Of a DNA stretch of 6,335 bases, positions 1 through 6,335 are shown one piece after another (positions within the stretch are counted from its first letter, which is position 1; each line of letters begins with the position of its first letter). The notes beneath the pieces were generated by a model, which saw nothing but the letters and a program-made list of their open reading frames with translations, did not search any database and was not told the DNA's origin. The translations under genes were made by a program, and so were the position numbers. Source of the DNA: Escherichia coli. GTDB lineage: Bacteria; Pseudomonadota; Gammaproteobacteria; Enterobacterales; Enterobacteriaceae. The stretch lies in NCBI RefSeq assembly GCF_003334355.1, contig NZ_QOWP01000066.1. One strand, written 5' to 3'.

Positions 1-80
1 ATGCTTCCATCGGAAACGATGATCTGGCAGCCTGAGTTCACAGATAAAACACTCTCCAGGAAACCCGGGGCGGTTCACAA
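1..80. repeat. Left copy of perfect 80-bp terminal inverted repeat
   Basis: Positions 1-80 are the exact reverse complement of 6256-6335 (80/80). Identity breaks at position 81 versus 6255. Contains GTTCACA twice (36-42, 73-79) and the 12-mer TAAAACACTCTC (45-56). Confidence 0.97.
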
Positions 81-1200
81 TTATGCGGTTATATCGCTTA
101 CCTGCGGCCTCAATGAATTTTTGCTGCCCTTTAGTAGCAGACTCATAAAGCTGTTTATCTGAAATGCCTCCCAGACCATCGTTATATGTTCTGACCAGAT
201 TTTCCCGAGCCTGTTGTTGATTCAGCCTGTTCGTACCCGTTCCAAAAAAAGGAATTTTTTCGCCTGTTTTCTGGGCCAGACTCTGCACAGTGTTTTTATC
301 TTTCAGTACGTCACTGGTCATTAACGGTAGGTTTCTTTCCGATGCAAAATCAACAGCGGCTTTCGCTTCCGGTGCCATATCACCGCGAACGGCCCTCGAA
401 ACGGCACTCACTGTATTCTCCAGACCCTTACCAATGCCGCCAATGCCAGCAGAGATTACCGTTTGTAACGGATCAATATCTTCTCCACCAGCGAGGCTGG
501 TGGCTCCCTGTAGTGCTAAATCTGTAGCTGCTGATTTCCCTATGGCCCCCAGCACCGTTCCGGCCCTGCCCGCTGGTGTAAACGCCAGCGCATTAGCCAG
601 AAACGATGCCACGTCTTGCGGTGATAAACCCGGCTTGTTCAGAGCATAATCACCGGATGGTAGGGAAACGATAGTGTTACCCTTCTCATCCTGCCTTAAT
701 TTCGCTCCCATGCTCTGAAGAATCTTTTCCTGAGATGCGTCAGAGCCGAAAAGTTGAGACCATCGAGCTTTTAGAGCATCCATGCTGAGTGAGGTTAACT
801 CTGGGGCAAGGTCGACATTTTGCAGTCTCTCCATCTCTGGAGTCATTCGGCTTTCGCCTGTTATAGCATCGCGCATCGCAGCCCCAAGACTGGCTCCCTG
901 TTCTGCTGAACGTTCAAGCCCCTCTCTTTGCTGAGTCGCTAACTTTGCATACCCTGACGCAAGAGAATTATCAGATGATGTATGTTGAATATTTTGAGTT
1001 GCTGATTGGGCTCGGTCTATTTCATTCGTTGATGGTAGTGGATAGGCAGCATAAAAAGCCTGCTTAGCCTGCTCTACACTTTCTCCGGCTTGCGGGGCAA
1101 CGACTTCGTTGAAGTATTGCTCCTGAGCCTGCGCTTTTTGTTCTGGTGCTAACGCCTGATACTGTGGAGAGGCGATAACATCTTTCCATGCTTTAGCCAT
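1..1200 (-). CDS. Hypothetical protein, third gene of minus-strand operon; 400 codons in window, 3' end beyond window start (partial)
   Basis: ATG at 1200..1198 overlaps the TAA stop of the upstream gene by 1 nt (TAATG), implying translational coupling. SD-like GGGGTG lies 5-6 nt upstream. Hand translation of all 400 codons down to position 1 shows no stop (MAKAWKDVIASPQYQALAPEQKAQAQEQYF ... GKRYNRIIVNRPGFPGECFICELRLPDHRFRWKH). Ala/Gly/Gln/Ser-rich with no catalytic motif recognised. Absent from the ORF track, presumably because it has no in-window stop. Confidence 0.8.
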   Translation of the reverse strand, partial: MAKAWKDVIASPQYQALAPEQKAQAQEQYFNEVVAPQAGESVEQAKQAFYAAYPLPSTNEIDRAQSATQNIQHTSSDNSLASGYAKLATQQREGLERSAEQGASLGAAMRDAITGESRMTPEMERLQNVDLAPELTSLSMDALKARWSQLFGSDASQEKILQSMGAKLRQDEKGNTIVSLPSGDYALNKPGLSPQDVASFLANALAFTPAGRAGTVLGAIGKSAATDLALQGATSLAGGEDIDPLQTVISAGIGGIGKGLENTVSAVSRAVRGDMAPEAKAAVDFASERNLPLMTSDVLKDKNTVQSLAQKTGEKIPFFGTGTNRLNQQQARENLVRTYNDGLGGISDKQLYESATKGQQKFIEAAGKRYNRIIVNRPGFPGECFICELRLPDHRFRWKH

Positions 1201-2666
1201 TAATCACCCCATAGTGAAGAAAAGTTACTGCTGGCTGCTGGCTGTGATACCTGCTCAGATTGCGGCAATGTCTGCGACGAAGAAGAAGTTCCTCTGTCAA
1301 CTGCTGAAATAACCCGCAAAGCATCATAAGCTCGACCAGAAGCAGCTTTCAGCGAATTGAACTGGTTTTCCATCTTCCGGCGCTTGGTATCAATGGTTTT
1401 TGTGGAATCACCAGGCTGAGGGAAATACATTTGATAATATTTTGACATTTCAGCAGGTACGATAGCTGCCCCTGTTTCCTGACGGAGTATTGCCATTATT
1501 GCGTCATTAGCATTAACAACGTATTGCTGCTCTGTTGGGCTGAGCGTTAAGTTAGCCAGCGTCCCATTACCCAAAGCATTATTAATGATCGCCACTCGCT
1601 GTGGGCTAATCTGGCCTTTCAGTGTATCCATTGAATCAAGAGCATCCCTAACTCTGTATGCAAATCCAGCAGCTTTTTTAGCCCCTTCTGGCGACTTTTC
1701 CATGATCTTTTGAGCTGTTGGCAAAGCTATTAGACGAAACCCATCTCCAGATATTGGCTGGTTTAGTTTTCCCTGCTCTTCACTTCCGTCTGTGTAGTAT
1801 TTTGTGACAGTGCCATCATCGTTTTCCCTAACACTCATTAATTTTTTGGCGTTTGTATTAATTCCAGCCGCTGCCGCAAATGCCGCCGCCCCCTCTGGAT
1901 CCGCCTTTAACATTTGAGCGTACTGATTGTAATTCTGCATTGCTGCTGTTGGTGCATATGCTGACGTTAACGCATTTGCTCGGCTAATATCCTGCCCTCT
2001 CGCCTGAAGTGCTTCGCCAGCCTGATTGCTGCGGATTGTCTCTGCCAACTCGCCGCGCTCAATATCCCGACCTTCCATTTGATCTTTGATATCGAAATAC
2101 TTCTCATGACCGAGAGAAAACAGCGCCAGATTACCTGCGAAATGCTGGAAGCCCTGCGGGTCATTAACCTGCATTTCAGCAATAGTTTCTGGAGGGATAC
2201 CTAAACGACGCATCTCCTGCTCATTATCCATCATGAACCTGCCAAATGCGCCCGGACCAAGCGATGAGGCTACCTGTGCTTTGAGCGCCAGATTGCCATA
2301 ATCATCCCTTTGAGCATCATCGACATAACTCATCCCTTTACGGACTTCCTCAAACTCTTCTGGGAATGCTGTAATAAGATTACGCATCTGCTCCCTGTCG
2401 CCGGACGCATAAGCATCTGCATAACCTTTCTGGAATGCCGCTTTACGCTCCTGCTGTTGCTGCTGCTTATAAATATCAGCAACTCCAGCCAGACCACGTA
2501 ACGCGGTCAGACCAACGTTATTTGCACCTGAGCGAGCCAGTTCATTGTTTTCGCGGATCAGACCAAGCGTTGCGTTAATGTCGCTTGCCTTTGGCGCATT
2601 CTCGTTTTGCGTACCGATGCCAGCCAGAAAACCACCAGAATTAATACCCTGTTGCCACGTAGCCAT
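1200..2666 (-). CDS. Hypothetical low-complexity protein (488 aa from ATG), second gene of operon
   Basis: The ORF track gives 1200..2678 (492 aa) starting at a GTG that overlaps the upstream small ORF. I prefer the ATG at 2666..2664 (MATWQQGINSGG...), 4 nt after the TAA of the 57-aa ORF. Stop TAA at 1202..1200. Contains a QQQQQ run and Ala/Gln-rich segments. No Walker, HNH, integrase or nuclease motifs seen by eye. Confidence 0.85.
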   Translation of the reverse strand: MATWQQGINSGGFLAGIGTQNENAPKASDINATLGLIRENNELARSGANNVGLTALRGLAGVADIYKQQQQQERKAAFQKGYADAYASGDREQMRNLITAFPEEFEEVRKGMSYVDDAQRDDYGNLALKAQVASSLGPGAFGRFMMDNEQEMRRLGIPPETIAEMQVNDPQGFQHFAGNLALFSLGHEKYFDIKDQMEGRDIERGELAETIRSNQAGEALQARGQDISRANALTSAYAPTAAMQNYNQYAQMLKADPEGAAAFAAAAGINTNAKKLMSVRENDDGTVTKYYTDGSEEQGKLNQPISGDGFRLIALPTAQKIMEKSPEGAKKAAGFAYRVRDALDSMDTLKGQISPQRVAIINNALGNGTLANLTLSPTEQQYVVNANDAIMAILRQETGAAIVPAEMSKYYQMYFPQPGDSTKTIDTKRRKMENQFNSLKAASGRAYDALRVISAVDRGTSSSSQTLPQSEQVSQPAASSNFSSLWGD

Positions 2667-2670
2667 TGAT

Positions 2671-2844
2671 TTACCCACGTCCAGTTAAAGTGTAAGCCAG
2701 CGCCTTATCCATTAATCCCCGAGCAATTTCGTGGATCGTTGGCGCAACTCCTACCTCTGATTTTTTACGCTGCTCCTCCTGAATTTTCTTTATCGCTTCC
2801 ATTTGCTTCTCACTTATCAATACTGGCTTTACTGAAATAGCCAT
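2671..2844 (-). CDS. Small 57-aa protein, possible ribbon-helix-helix-like DNA-binding regulator (inference)
   Basis: ATG at 2844..2842 preceded by a strong SD (AAGGGGG, 4 nt spacer); stop TAA at 2673..2671. Translation MAISVKPVLISEKQMEAIKKIQEEQRKKSEVGVAPTIHEIARGLMDKALAYTLTGRG has a short N-terminal beta-like segment (KPVLIS) followed by two predicted helices, as in Arc/Mnt/CopG-type folds. Too short for the ORF track. Confidence 0.55.
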   Translation of the reverse strand: MAISVKPVLISEKQMEAIKKIQEEQRKKSEVGVAPTIHEIARGLMDKALAYTLTGRG

Positions 2845-2877
2845 AACGCCCCCTTAGAACTGTATAAAACAACAGTT

Positions 2878-2905
2878 ATTATAGTTTCACAAATCGCAAT
2901 ATTAA
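2878..2905 (-). promoter_or_regulatory. Candidate sigma70 promoter for the three-gene operon
   Basis: On the minus strand a perfect -10 TATAAT (plus-strand 2878-2883), a 16-bp spacer and a -35-like TTAATA (2900-2905, 4/6 match). The predicted start is about 25 nt upstream of the 57-aa ORF ATG. Confidence 0.4.
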
Positions 2906-2918
2906 TCATCGCAATTGC
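2893..2918. promoter_or_regulatory. Operator-like repeats overlapping the -35 region
   Basis: Direct repeat ATCGCAAT at 2893-2900 and 2908-2915 flanking the palindrome ATTAAT, plus the 8-bp perfect palindrome GCAATTGC at 2911-2918. Confidence 0.35.
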
Positions 2919-2939
2919 AAAATATGAAACAAATAGCAC

Positions 2940-2972
2940 AAAAAAATGCCACCGCTCAGTAGCTGGTGGCAT
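2940..2972 (-). terminator. Rho-independent terminator between the primase unit and the downstream operon
   Basis: Minus-strand RNA reads AUGCCACC-A-GCU-ACUG-AGC-GGUGGCAU followed by UUUUUU: an 11-bp GC-rich stem with one bulge and a 4-nt loop, then a 6-U tract. Lies downstream of the primase gene and iterons, and upstream of the operon promoter. Confidence 0.7.
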
Positions 2973-3166
2973 CGTTCTGTATGTCAGGTTTTGACAGGTT
3001 TTTTATGGACTCTAAAAACTATATTTATGGTGTCGCATTACTCTTCACGGCAGGCGCTTTCCAGTTCTGCCCTTGCTTCTGGCTCCATTGGTAATTTGAT
3101 TCGCGATCAGCTATGCGGATGGTTTGCTGAACAGGCATAACAACTTCTCAAAGGCTGTTTTTTGAA

Positions 3167-3183
3167 CTACGAAAATTTCGTAG
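3167..3183. promoter_or_regulatory. Palindrome CTACGAAA-A-TTTCGTAG, putative protein-binding site
   Basis: Perfect 8-bp inverted repeat with a 1-bp centre. Shares the TACGAAA/TTTCGTA half-site with the palindrome at 3222-3242. Confidence 0.35.
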
Positions 3184-3221
3184 TGCTCACTTTCAAAAAC
3201 GTCACGCCCTTGTACACAGGA

Positions 3222-3242
3222 TTTTACGAAAGTCTCGTAAAA
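3222..3242. promoter_or_regulatory. Palindrome TTTTACGA-AAGTC-TCGTAAAA, putative protein-binding site
   Basis: Perfect 8-bp inverted repeat with a 5-bp spacer. Overlaps the 12-mer TAAAACACTCTC (3238-3249), which also occurs in the terminal inverted repeat. Confidence 0.35.
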
Positions 3243-3291
3243 CACTCTCTGATGCCAGCCAGGTGTTGTGCGCATCAATTCAGTCACATTG

Positions 3292-3405
3292 TGTTGGTTC
3301 AAAATACCGTGTTGTTGGTTCAGTGTTGGTTCAATAAAAAGAATAAAATCCTTATAAAACAATACTCTTTACAAATTGAACCAACTGAACCAACTGAACC
3401 AACAC
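3292..3405. repeat. Iteron cluster, putative replication origin or cis-replication region
   Basis: TGTTGGTTCA at 3292-3301, 3313-3322 and 3324-3333 (21- and 11-bp phasing). A 43-bp AT-rich spacer (3334-3376). TGAACCAAC at 3377-3385, 3386-3394 and 3395-3403 in inverted orientation; the 11-mer GTGTTGGTTCA is perfectly inverted at 3395-3405. Starts 24 bp after the primase-helicase stop. Confidence 0.6.
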
Positions 3406-3428
3406 CTTTTCTACGCACATGAAGAAGC

Positions 3429-6185
3429 TCATTCTTCAGATGAGTTGTAATCTCCTGGCTGGTAATTGAGTACATAAACGTTTATTTGTCGTCCCTGAAT
3501 ACGTGGTGATTTTCTTTGGTATCCACGACCGCTGTTTGGTGGGGTTAGCATCCCGGCTTTTTTCAACACTTCAGCAAACTGTTTTGCGTTGAAACCACAT
3601 GCGATCTCCTTTTCAAATGTGGCCGGGAATGTGTAGAAAATCATTGGGCTTTCGTCATGTTCTCCACGCTGACGGTATCCGGCTAAATCTTTGATTGGCA
3701 AATCTGCCGGGCTGTATGGAAATGGTGCAAAACGGCTAAGCCCATAGGCATTAAGAAATGCCTCCGTTTGTTCAATAATCTGCTGATGTTCTTTGTTACC
3801 TGTGCCGAACTCGCGCAACCATGCGTTATAGCTGTGCTGTATCGCATCACGGCATGTCTGAGCATCCCAGCCTGTTACAACCTCGCCTAACAGCAATGCG
3901 GCCTCCAGAATGGCAAATCGCGCGGCTACACGGTGAACCTGCTCACCATAATCGGATGGAATCAGGCTTCTCCATCTGCTTTCGCAGTCACGAACAGTTT
4001 TAATAGCCTGTTGCTGGTGGTCTGCCAGCCATTTAATCCACTCACGCCCGGCTGCGCCGTGGTGATGCTGGTAAGCGTCTTTCAGTGCGTCTGCGTGCTG
4101 TTTTCCGTTCTGGTAATCGTGAAAGAGTACTGCTTTACTCAACGGAATATTCAGCAGTCGCACCAGTTGCCCGGCTTTGGTTTTTCGCCCGGAAGTAGCG
4201 ATAAATGTTTCTAAATCCATTTCTCCAGTGCTGATTGCCACTGTACGCCAGCGTTTTAGATCCCGGTTTCCACCATCTTTAGCGCCTTGCAGTTTCCCTA
4301 CACCGTTAAATAACGCATAGGCAGACTGTGAAACACTGACAGGATCAGCGCCCTGACCAACTTCATCAAGCGGCATTAGTCCGTCATTGTGGGCGGCGGC
4401 TTCATTTGCCAGCCCCAGCGCGGTTCCGTACCACGTCAGCCGCAGTAAATCAGGGTTGCCGTATAAGCTGCTCGCCACGTTTGCCGTGGTGGTCTTACCT
4501 GCGCTCGACTGCTCATAGAAATGAATGCCGAACCCGTCAGCGCCCACCAGCCCAATCAATGGCGCTGCCAGTGCTGCGCCGATCCCGGTCATCATTGAAT
4601 AGTTACCAAAGGCCAGACGCGCCACGTTATCACGCCAGCTTTTCGCGCTCCCTGAGACGGTATATCCGGCTGCGGCTGAGCTTCTCCCGCTGAACAGCAC
4701 AGGATTTTCAGGTGTTCCGATGATTTCCCCATCAGGCATGATGTACGCTCCGCATTGCCAGCCAGTGGCATGAGCAACACGCCACAATTCACGAGAGCCA
4801 CTGCGTTGTAGCCAGTCTGCCAGTATTGCTCTGAGGCTGCTTTTGGTCGTGACATTTACCCCACCAGCTTTAAGTGTGCGCCATCCTTCACGTTCACCAA
4901 TATCAGCCAGTGGAATGGCAGCGGTTGTCGGCGTTTCAGAACCAAACGACAGCCAGCGAAGAATGAGATACTGGTCTTTATCGTCTCTGCCAGTACCGAT
5001 AACGCTTAACGGAGAACATAACCAGCTTTCGTTATTGATGATTTCTCCACTCTGGCTGTCAGCTCTCGGAGATACCCAATAAATACCATCCTCGCGGCTT
5101 TCTATTCTTGGTTTCAGTGGGTCGGTATCCATAACCTTAAAATCGCTTCCCTCAATGGTCTGTGGCTGCTGTTTCACGCCATTACCCTGTGGTTGGTACA
5201 TTGACTTATTGAACGCTTCTGTGGCGCATTTAATGCCGTGTTTTTGGTGGTAATCATTCCAGTCTGCTTTGTGATCTGTCGGGGGTAATGCCACCCATCC
5301 AGAAACAGATAAAGCTGCTTTTTCTGCTGCTATTCTCCCCGTGTTTTGTCTTCCTTCGCTGTGGTCGTTATCCGCAGCAATGATGATTTGTGCTGAAGGA
5401 AATTTATCCCGCAGTACCTGGGCGACATATAACAGGTTCCCGGCATCAATCGCCGCCACTGTCAGCGATTCTGGACGAATTAAATGGGCAGATAATGCCG
5501 TTGCCAGCCCTTCTGCGATTAAGATGCTCTGTGTTGTTTCTGGTGCGTTTATGGCGTGATATGCCCCTCGCTTTGCTGAACCTGTCAGGAGTCTTTTTTC
5601 ACCATGTGAGGTAATAGTCTGTGCTGCTGTGACTGCGCCGGATTTATCCACCAGCGCCAGCAACAGAGATCCATCGGGCAACACTGGGAATGTAAAATCA
5701 CCTACCCCTTTCGCAACCAGATAATCAGATTTGCCGTTTACAGCCTTTCTGCGCATGTCATCAAACTGACGGGAAAACGTATCCCGTCTTTGTTGTTCGT
5801 CCTTCTCTGCCCTTTTCAGGCGCTCCTGTTCGCGTCGCTGGCGCTCGGTTTCCAGTTGTTCCCGTTTCTGGCTGGTGGCTTCTGGTGTTTCCGTTGTCCG
5901 GTAATCAATACCCAGAACATCAGCGGCAAGAAGCGCCGCCTCTGTTGTGTCGCAGTTATTTACGCGTTTAATTAAATCCAGCCCATCACCAGCGCCGCAC
6001 TGATTACAGATGAAGCTACCGCGCCCGTTGTCGTCGAACCGGAATCGATCTTTGCCCCCACATGCAGGGCAGGGAGCATGACGGCGAGGAGAGTCAGGGA
6101 CATTTATGTTCAGACAGCCCAGCACATGAGGCCAGTTGTTTTCAGACGCACTGATAACCTGACGGATAAGATCAATGTTTCGCAT
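3429..6185 (-). CDS. Primase-helicase, P4 alpha-like (zinc ribbon + TOPRIM + P-loop NTPase, 918 aa)
   Basis: ORF track 3429..6185. ATG preceded by SD ACGGGGG with a 5-nt spacer. Zinc-ribbon motif CPACGGKDRFRFDDNGRGSFICNQCG (aa 39-63, nt about 5997-6071). Charged linker ERQRREQERLKRAEKDEQQRRD. TOPRIM signatures IAEGLATA and IIIAADNDHSEG (aa about 220-300). Walker A-like SSAGKTT (aa 560-566, nt 4488-4508) and Walker B-like MPLDEVG. The architecture matches the P4 alpha and DUF927-type primase-helicases of satellites and integrative elements. Confidence 0.92.
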   Translation of the reverse strand: MRNIDLIRQVISASENNWPHVLGCLNINVPDSPRRHAPCPACGGKDRFRFDDNGRGSFICNQCGAGDGLDLIKRVNNCDTTEAALLAADVLGIDYRTTETPEATSQKREQLETERQRREQERLKRAEKDEQQRRDTFSRQFDDMRRKAVNGKSDYLVAKGVGDFTFPVLPDGSLLLALVDKSGAVTAAQTITSHGEKRLLTGSAKRGAYHAINAPETTQSILIAEGLATALSAHLIRPESLTVAAIDAGNLLYVAQVLRDKFPSAQIIIAADNDHSEGRQNTGRIAAEKAALSVSGWVALPPTDHKADWNDYHQKHGIKCATEAFNKSMYQPQGNGVKQQPQTIEGSDFKVMDTDPLKPRIESREDGIYWVSPRADSQSGEIINNESWLCSPLSVIGTGRDDKDQYLILRWLSFGSETPTTAAIPLADIGEREGWRTLKAGGVNVTTKSSLRAILADWLQRSGSRELWRVAHATGWQCGAYIMPDGEIIGTPENPVLFSGRSSAAAGYTVSGSAKSWRDNVARLAFGNYSMMTGIGAALAAPLIGLVGADGFGIHFYEQSSAGKTTTANVASSLYGNPDLLRLTWYGTALGLANEAAAHNDGLMPLDEVGQGADPVSVSQSAYALFNGVGKLQGAKDGGNRDLKRWRTVAISTGEMDLETFIATSGRKTKAGQLVRLLNIPLSKAVLFHDYQNGKQHADALKDAYQHHHGAAGREWIKWLADHQQQAIKTVRDCESRWRSLIPSDYGEQVHRVAARFAILEAALLLGEVVTGWDAQTCRDAIQHSYNAWLREFGTGNKEHQQIIEQTEAFLNAYGLSRFAPFPYSPADLPIKDLAGYRQRGEHDESPMIFYTFPATFEKEIACGFNAKQFAEVLKKAGMLTPPNSGRGYQRKSPRIQGRQINVYVLNYQPGDYNSSEE

Positions 6186-6197
6186 TCTGGCCCCCGT

Positions 6198-6335
6198 TTA
6201 GTGCGTCACTGGTGCTTCTGGGATGCCGTTTTCGTTTAGTTCGGCAATAAAGCTGTTGTGAACCGCCCCGGGTTTCCTGGAGAGTGTTTTATCTGTGAAC
6301 TCAGGCTGCCAGATCATCGTTTCCGATGGAAGCAT
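6198..6335 (-). CDS. Small ORF (45 aa) directly upstream of the primase-helicase; start may lie beyond the window
   Basis: ATG at 6335..6333 and TAA at 6200..6198, ending 12 nt before the primase ATG. Translation MLPSETMIWQPEFTDKTLSRKPGAVHNSFIAELNENGIPEAPVTH. The first 80 nt are the terminal inverted repeat. Operon-like spacing with the primase supports it, but it is short and without recognised motifs. Confidence 0.4.
   Translation of the reverse strand: MLPSETMIWQPEFTDKTLSRKPGAVHNSFIAELNENGIPEAPVTH
6256..6335. repeat. Right copy of perfect 80-bp terminal inverted repeat
   Basis: Exact reverse complement of 1-80. Confidence 0.97.

Follow-up and report, generated by a model that had tools for sequence, protein, structure and literature searches.

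We analyzed a 6,335-nt stretch of Escherichia coli DNA (contig NZ_QOWP01000066.1 of assembly GCF_003334355.1; referred to here as the window) which, as judged from its genes, carries part of a phage-inducible chromosomal island (PICI) of the EcCIMP1 type. The analysis concerned the interval from 2878 to 2918, which lies upstream of a gene for a 57-amino-acid (aa) protein. All genes of the window are on the minus strand, on which the promoter region reads ...GTTTCATATTTTGCAATTGCGATGATTAATATTGCGATTTGTGAAACTATAATAACTGTTGTTTTATACAGTTCTAAGGGGGCGTTATG. In the 5'-to-3' order of that strand, the features in and around the interval are as follows (counts of loci refer to the alignment described below).

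2940..2973, minus strand: intrinsic terminator, a hairpin GAUGCCACC...GGUGGCAU(U) followed by a U7 run
2915-2929, TTTCATATTTTGCAA on the minus strand: distal box (O_D), a 15-bp imperfect palindrome centered near -51
2900-2914: inter-box spacer of 15 bp, variable, which holds the weak -35 and the second copy of ATCGCAAT
2905..2900, minus strand: weak -35 hexamer TTAATA (4 of 6 consensus matches), with a 16-nt spacer to the -10
2885-2899, TTGCGATTTGTGAAA on the minus strand: proximal box (O_P), which fills the -35/-10 spacer, stops 1 nt short of the -10, and is centered near -21
2883..2878, minus strand: -10 hexamer TATAAT, identical in 17 of 19 loci (1.64 bits per column)
2877..2858 (minus-strand reading): predicted LexA box AACTGTTGTTTTATACAGTT with its CTGT-N8-ACAG core at 2860-2875, directly after the -10 and spanning the predicted start
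2849..2855, minus strand: Shine-Dalgarno sequence AAGGGGG, 4 nt before the ATG at 2844
2671..2844, minus strand: gene for the 57-aa protein, first in its operon, from an orphan family; candidate autoregulator

Upstream DNA of homologues of the 57-aa gene was taken from Serratia, Klebsiella, Erwinia, Raoultella, Chimaeribacter, Lonsdalea, Pantoea, Pectobacterium, Rahnella, and Escherichia, and 19 loci from these 10 enterobacterial genera were aligned by anchoring on the best two-box match. All 19 loci share a common layout (i.e., a palindrome, 15 variable bases, a second palindrome, and one base), which is followed by TATAAT in 17 of them. The box starts are exactly 30 bp apart, and the gap to the -10 is 1 nt, without exception. 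Regarding conservation, the distal and proximal boxes carry 1.44 and 1.39 bits per column, respectively, compared with 0.67 for the inter-box spacer and 0.47 for the upstream flank. Within the boxes, the half-sites (1.3 to 2.0 bits) are more constrained than the centers (0.8 to 1.0 bits), and the spacer contains substitutions even between E. coli alleles. The boxes have the form TT(T/G)CA-N5-TG(A/C)AA, for which O_D is the sole exact match in the window (0.10 expected). The paired motif was found only at this promoter in approximately 200 kb of loci, including the complete island of E. coli ECamp52 (L001). EcCIMP1 has the same boxes, -10, and LexA box, together with a 53-aa homologue, and a different element with a 40%-identical homologue (L052) has kept both boxes, the 30-bp spacing, TATAAT, and a CTG-N10-CAG sequence. 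On these counts, the layout of the box pair exceeds chance, and the two palindromes are predicted to be operators.

The original prediction had sought the operators in other repeats, namely, two direct copies of ATCGCAAT (2893-2900 and 2908-2915) and the palindrome GCAATTGC (2911-2918). These exist as described. Unlike the layout of the box pair, they are within chance for a region of 31% G+C: when the 96-nt AT-rich leader was resampled with a first-order Markov model, the P value was 0.17 for an exact direct repeat of 8 nt within 30 nt and 0.45 for a perfect 8-nt palindrome. Moreover, the second ATCGCAAT copy and GCAATTGC are lost in EcCIMP1, which reads ATTACGAT and GCAATTAC, and in an Escherichia sp. 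locus (L010), which reads AATCACGAT there. Given their chance-level frequency and lack of conservation, ATCGCAAT and GCAATTGC were excluded as operators. The idea of symmetric elements overlapping the promoter was thus right in kind, but the conserved elements are the two 15-bp palindromes, one of which lies mostly outside the interval.

A further motif was observed beside the boxes in other species. A GATC-containing sequence, (A)ACGATCAAAT, lies approximately 10 to 25 nt upstream of the distal box and is often doubled approximately 10 nt apart (e.g., CGATCAAAACGATCAAAT). It is conserved in Klebsiella, Raoultella, Pantoea, Erwinia, Chimaeribacter, and Serratia silvae loci (L004, L006, L008, L009, and L011-L018), is absent from the E. 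coli window, and may be a Dam methylation site or a regulator site.

The original prediction also held that the interval contains a TATAAT -10 with a weak -35 and that these form the promoter of the operon headed by the 57-aa gene. Both hexamers are present on the minus strand where it had placed them, and the promoter was corroborated by the -10 in 17 of the 19 loci, the strong terminator upstream, and the short leader with its Shine-Dalgarno sequence. The -35 is weak in all loci and its position is unconserved, the family showing a loose T-n-A-T-C-A. A consensus scan of 2500-3600 detected 1 promoter-like site versus 1.9 expected, i.e., within chance. The terminator hairpin has a minimum free energy of -24.1 kcal/mol (z = -5.97 against 200 shuffles), and the scan also flags the site as terminator-like; Erwinia and Pantoea loci likewise have a hairpin and a T-run upstream. 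Because this strong terminator stands just upstream of the distal box (approximately 10 nt), the operon appears to be an independent unit that is insulated, as predicted from the hairpin, from transcription of the primase and origin region. From the position of the -10, transcription would start at approximately 2870-2872, giving a leader of approximately 27 nt with the Shine-Dalgarno sequence at its end; the latter is G-rich and in the same position at all loci. As predicted from these elements, the interval is the core of a minus-strand sigma-70 promoter that drives the operon headed by the 57-aa gene.

The predicted LexA (SOS) box adjoins the interval just outside it and was absent from the original prediction. 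The LexA box consensus is TACTGTATATATATACAGTA, a CTGT-N8-ACAG palindrome (PMC8072944). This core pattern has a single match in the window (0.06 expected) and a single match in the 28.8-kb L001 locus. We scored the boxes with a matrix resembling the heterology index (HI), which was derived from 24 E. coli SOS boxes and gives approximate scores. On this approximate scale, the window box scores 6.8, which is better than the leave-one-out median of those E. coli boxes (8.0; maximum, 16), and it is near the published low-HI peak of approximately 7.3 (PMC12527982). Scores below 10 occur at approximately 5 in 100,000 positions of the loci examined, and nearly all of these are the same site in relatives. 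The canonical spacing is found in 10 of the 19 loci with scores of 6.5 to 8.9 and a variable center; the Serratia, Erwinia, Pantoea, and Lonsdalea loci (scores of 6.5 to 8.9) retain CTGT and ACAG around 8 central nt that differ. The box of EcCIMP1 is identical to that of the window. Furthermore, two loci with 26%-identical homologues (L047 and L048) have the LexA box GTCTGTATGTTTAACCAGTA (score, 9.4) at the same distance from the start codon within a promoter that is otherwise different from that of the window, and the CTG-N10-CAG sequence of L052 (score, 11.6) is also at that distance. The predicted LexA box, which overlaps the predicted transcription start, is the best-supported regulatory input, and we consider it quite likely that host LexA controls this promoter.

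Two side observations concern LexA-like and operator-like sites elsewhere. A further LexA-like site, CTCTGTATGCAAATCCAGCA, is present at 1652-1671 of the window inside the gp20-like coding region described below (CTG-N10-CAG; score, 10.8) and may be due to chance. In L047 and L048, a perfect palindrome, ATACAGA-N5-TCTGTAT, with likewise a 5-N5-5 geometry, is located at 3955-3973, 46 nt upstream of the start codon; it overlaps the LexA box and is downstream of a good TTGACG-17-TAAGTT promoter.

To identify the promoter without reference to the gene, we scanned 2.9 million viral contigs of IMG/VR with the bare DNA pattern (i.e., both boxes plus TATAAT). The scan returned 22 matches, mostly on contigs of 13 to 25 kb, and 21 of these have a 57-aa gene homologue that starts approximately 20 to 30 nt downstream. 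The lone exception (L039) is an AT-rich phage early promoter with a cro-like helix-turn-helix (HTH) gene. The neighbors of the module vary both upstream (primase, PerC, SSB, or defense-like AAA_15/21 genes) and downstream (gp20/gp16-like, SLT/Dit-like, or tape-measure-like genes). As far as sequence can tell, this tight linkage of promoter and gene (21 of 22) favors the 57-aa protein as the binder of the palindromes.

The protein is basic and belongs to a family of 53 to 60 aa with 64 representatives (E value of ≤0.001) among 1.84 billion proteins, confined to Enterobacterales-type elements. A tblastn search against 50,697 phage records gave no match, and it is therefore not a phage gene. PHROGs and NCBIfam also yielded no match for the protein. 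The original prediction had called it ribbon-helix-helix (RHH)-like. To model the dimer, two copies were joined by a 30-residue Gly/Ser linker and folded with AlphaFold2 (AF2) using a matched alignment. In the best model, beta(6-10)-alpha-alpha occurs twice, with a predicted local distance difference test score of 70 to 85 in the ordered parts and a predicted template modeling score of 0.57. The RHH proteins listed with this model were TraM, AvtR, VirC2, PutA-RHH, NikR, omega, ParD, and CopG. The predicted model has the RHH topology (i.e., beta-alpha-alpha units in an intertwined dimer with a two-stranded antiparallel ribbon), and symmetric candidate operator subsites over the gene's own promoter, as in RHH repressors, are present as the two 15-bp palindromes at fixed positions. 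An RHH dimer fold is thus supported as a moderately confident prediction. The earlier description holds at the level of the predicted fold and fails at the level of sequence families, none of the RHH type having matched.

We favor the reading that this is an SOS-gated promoter, probably autorepressed by its RHH product, and consider it slightly better than an even bet. RHH autoregulation is the weaker part of it and could go either way. Several findings weigh against this reading. Pfam had no match for the 57-aa protein or any of 36 family members, and sequence searches of the PDB matched no solved RHH protein. A comparison of the family profile with Arc and CopG by hhalign gave probabilities of <1% (not significant); despite this, the strand and helix A were in register in the CopG alignment. 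The AF2 monomer (an extended N terminus plus two helices) yielded nothing in a Foldseek search of the PDB, and only one of the five AF2 dimer models was confident, the other four being poor. The ribbon (S-V-K-P-V-L-I) is largely hydrophobic and is without the polar residues with which RHH repressors typically read bases. When it is placed in register with the ribbons of Arc, CopG, and NikR, the residues facing outward would be V5, P7, and L9. K6, the sole basic residue of the ribbon, gives way to Q, A, or S in members whose boxes are the same. From these residues, the ribbon is atypical for a base-reading RHH protein. Ribbon residues were also compared with half-site variants for covariation, which revealed no clean switch in specificity. 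The most divergent homologues (26 to 28% identity, from elements with D5-type primases) have lost one or both boxes, and L047 and L048 are without the TTKCA boxes.

The SOS part of the reading has its own counterevidence. In 8 of the 19 loci, including Klebsiella and Raoultella, the site is CTG-N9-CAG (scores of 14 to 19), and one locus has none. The N9 variants should not bind LexA. Because about half of the family has this spacing, SOS control appears to be frequent but not universal in the family. A single clade-specific loss of the LexA spacing was disfavored: the N10 and N9 states are interspersed on a neighbor-joining tree of the protein, which is poorly resolved with 55 aa.

The loci with N9 spacing show a further peculiarity. 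A second -10-like TATAAx usually comes straight after their distal box (L004, L008, L011, L012, L016-L018, and most of the IMG/VR matches), which is never seen in loci with a canonical LexA box. The 30-bp unit in those loci looks like a tandem duplication of a box plus a -10.

Among the other explanations, the strongest is that the promoter and LexA box are real and that the palindromes are bound by another factor (i.e., another island protein, a helper phage protein, or a conserved host regulator), while the 57-aa protein is not a transcription factor and serves, for example, as a small partner or chaperone of the co-encoded ejection proteins. We regard this as unlikely; the hydrophobic ribbon and the absence of an RHH sequence signature speak for it. 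The 57-aa gene is always first in ejection/transfer operons, even with a different primase family, and a fixed first gene stays linked to the promoter whatever binds there. The 15-bp 5-N5-5 palindromes would suit HTH dimers, as illustrated by the cro-like HTH gene at L039, and L047 and L048 keep a similar ribbon (KPILV) even though they are without the boxes. These points are opposed by the basic character of the 57-aa protein, its small size, and its modeling as an RHH dimer, and by the absence of the box pair from the rest of the complete island, the promoter region of the autoregulated alpA included. To our knowledge, TT(T/G)CA-N5-TG(A/C)AA does not fit the sites of Fis, CRP/FNR, CytR, Cra, PurR, ArgR, IclR, or other known E. 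coli regulators.

Specific candidates for such a binder were considered and rejected. AlpA, the master regulator of EcCIMP1, autoregulates (PMC11773190), and yet no boxes are found near alpA, which argues against AlpA as the binder. A regulator of the helper phage Kapi1 acting on the same operators was set aside, as Kapi1 is without paired boxes at any promoter and without a canonical LexA box, and its Arc and Mnt proteins are unrelated in sequence. No homologue of the 57-aa protein was found in Kapi1. A helper-encoded binder is unlikely in general, in that the cargo genes suggest differing helper types (P22-like and tape-measure-like) and the boxes are constant.

It is improbable that the palindromes are activator sites, although the promoter could then be protein dependent because of its weak -35, with the RHH protein or another protein at approximately -51 and in the spacer recruiting or remodeling RNA polymerase and creating positive feedback after LexA release. 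The -35 is indeed weak and unconserved in all loci, and the distal site is centered near -51, where class I activators commonly bind. Some RHH proteins activate, e.g., TraY and AmrZ. On the other side, a site that fills the 16-nt spacer between the -35 and -10 is in the classic position of a repressor, such as that of Arc at Pant, a perfect TATAAT can work without an activator where the upstream region is AT rich, and none of the tests here favors activation. Finally, the absence of any dedicated operators, with the AT-rich blocks representing promoter architecture (UP-element-like or curved DNA) or shared ancestry and their symmetry being incidental, is most improbable: short repeats and palindromes are common by chance at 31% G+C and many loci are related by descent, but conservation is concentrated in the half-sites while the centers and the spacer vary, and the spacing is invariant over 10 genera and in the 40%-identical homologue with its diverged surroundings.

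In the SOS-gated, autorepressed promoter that we favor, LexA bound over the start site would keep the operon off in the lysogen. Upon DNA damage, a P22-like helper would be induced and LexA would be cleaved as well, releasing the promoter, so that the LexA gate and helper prophage induction would respond to one and the same signal. Next, the RHH-like protein, as the first product, would occupy the two palindromes as dimers of dimers, with one RHH dimer per half-site by analogy with Arc at P22 Pant. This binding would damp the expression of both the RHH protein and the ejection proteins, i.e., a negative feedback that caps expression once LexA is gone. In its fullest form, the proposal is that LexA ties the satellite ejection proteins to the SOS response independently of helper-induced AlpA, that the orphan RHH protein feeds back through two phased operators, and that lineages toggle the SOS input through single-nucleotide changes in spacing (CTG-N10-CAG versus N9 or N11); we put this forward only tentatively.

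The remaining features of the window are as follows.

6185..3429, minus strand: primase, 918 aa, TOPRIM/DUF927
Between the primase and the 57-aa open reading frame: intergenic region of 585 nt
1200..2666, minus strand: P22 gp20-like DNA ejection (DNA transfer) protein, 488 aa (phrog_917; E value, 3e-145)
78..1200, minus strand: 5' part of a gp16-like DNA transfer/transglycosylase gene, interrupted near 77 by an end of an IS3-family insertion sequence (IS)

The gp20-like gene, which also carries the annotation "phage DNA ejection protein," starts 4 nt past the stop of the 57-aa gene, which indicates a shared operon. The full-length counterpart of the gp16-like gene in L001 encodes a 701-aa product that matches phrog_770 ("DNA transfer protein"). 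The window at 78-6262 corresponds to 11439-17623 of L001 with 99.98% identity. L001 occupies a tRNA-Thr site adjoining proA and contains an integrase, an AlpA-like regulator, antA, ash, the primase, and perC. An integrase, alpA, and a primase at tRNA-Thr/proA, with no capsid or lysis genes, place it among EcCIMP1-type PICIs, and its layout agrees with the published EcCIMP1 description and with the MP1 locus. EcCIMP1 is a PICI of E. coli MP1 that is mobilized by the P22-like phage Kapi1 (Pick, Stadel and Raivio 2025, PMC11773190). From the primase to the 57-aa gene, the MP1 locus and the window share 98.3% identity. Sequence and gene content mark the element as an EcCIMP1-type PICI and thus as a P22-like phage satellite.

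Helper-dependent excision and transfer were demonstrated for EcCIMP1 with Kapi1 (PMC11773190), a different copy from that of the window. Taken alone, the window consists of a primase-to-gp16-like segment bounded by IS ends. Positions 1-77 and 6263-6335 are inverted copies of one IS3-family (IS1203-like) end, and the first 80 nt of the window are the reverse complement of the last 80 nt. The IS insertions interrupt two genes, the gp16-like one and the one upstream of the primase, leaving an IS-flanked island remnant; this IS-truncated copy is probably immobile. Another form of such an island is L044 (NZ_CP148430.1; 12,152 bp), a circular copy deposited as a 12-kb E. coli plasmid. It contains antA, an icd-like gene, the primase, the 57-aa gene with the same promoter, perC, and an integrase, and is possibly an excised, replicating form of the island.

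Across the family (L002-L009 and L047-L051), the 57-aa homologue is always encoded first in an operon whose other genes are of the DNA transfer/ejection type. The cargo comprises gp14/gp7/gp20/gp16-like genes, SLT plus Dit-like genes, or a gene for a 1,050-aa tape-measure-like protein. The primase upstream of the module is of the TOPRIM/DUF927 or D5_N/Pox_D5 type, and Klebsiella and Raoultella loci have defense-like AAA_15/AAA_21 genes between the primase and the module.

The intergenic region contains iterons just downstream of the primase gene (3291-3334 and 3371-3405), with three direct TGAACCAAC-type copies, 9 nt apart, opposite three inverted GTTGGTTCA copies and an AT-rich stretch between them. 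In complete islands, a second, inverted cluster (87 to 95% identical) lies approximately 7 kb away beside perC (7173-7259 in L001). The iteron cluster is a candidate origin, and the arrangement recalls the P4 ori and crr. Two 15-bp palindromes, TACGAAAATTTCGTA (perfect; 3168-3182) and TACGAAAGTCTCGTA (3225-3239), stand 57 bp apart in the stretch from the iterons to the terminator and look like operators for another protein. An Rfam scan of the whole window at a permissive threshold detected only two chance matches to microRNA models, both on the inverted repeats of the iterons, and thus no known RNA that accounts for the region.

Several known systems resemble the promoter in part. In the Arc/Pant system of P22 immI and in that of CopG, as proposed here, an RHH protein is encoded by the first gene and a symmetric operator overlaps the promoter. 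Arc, however, has no detectable sequence similarity to the 57-aa protein, uses Q9, N11, and R13 of its ribbon where the ribbon of the 57-aa protein is hydrophobic, and acts at one 21-bp operator, whereas the window has two predicted operators 30 bp apart with different half-sites plus the LexA box. The plasmid RHH autorepressors CopG (RepA) of pMV158, omega, ParG, and ParD are associated with replication or partition genes, whereas the downstream genes here encode phage ejection proteins, and the 57-aa protein has no match to Pfam RHH_1, CopG, or Arc. LexA-controlled promoters of mobile elements include those of the colicin operons, tum of phage 186, the Gifsy antirepressors, and CTXphi PrstA (RstR plus LexA). 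They share with the window promoter an E. coli-type SOS box over the core promoter, which ties expression to DNA damage, and in CTXphi an element-specific repressor joins LexA, as we infer for the window. They differ in gating antirepressor, toxin, or replication genes, whereas the predicted LexA box of the window sits on satellite ejection proteins, and many relatives of the window promoter have a LexA-like box with spacing 1 nt too short. Compared with EcCIMP1, which has gp14- and gp7-like genes, the window copy is without both and is truncated by IS3-family ends on both sides. The EcCIMP1 paper (PMC11773190) contains no mention of this promoter, LexA, or an RHH protein, and no paper in the literature searched combines PICI, LexA, and SOS box. 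The regulatory design is thus conventional in kind and undescribed for this island. What is new is an orphan family predicted to be RHH-like, a promoter without earlier description in a PICI family that was itself described recently, and what may be a direct input of SOS to a PICI operon.

PICIs are thought to be woken by helper phage proteins and not through damage to the DNA as such. The alpA gene of EcCIMP1 responds to the helper and not to mitomycin C alone (PMC11773190). The predicted LexA box on an ejection operon with its own terminator and promoter suggests a second, helper-independent timing input, which would prime the satellite when the helper prophage is induced. The model would account for the silence of the ejection protein operon in the lysogen, and it would give the conserved "hypothetical protein" of hundreds of E. 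coli genomes a probable role. EcCIMP1 thereby gains a testable model of two repressors acting at three sites within 75 bp. If this is true, a direct LexA input to an operon of a Gram-negative PICI would be described for the first time, and the RHH proteins would gain a new family.

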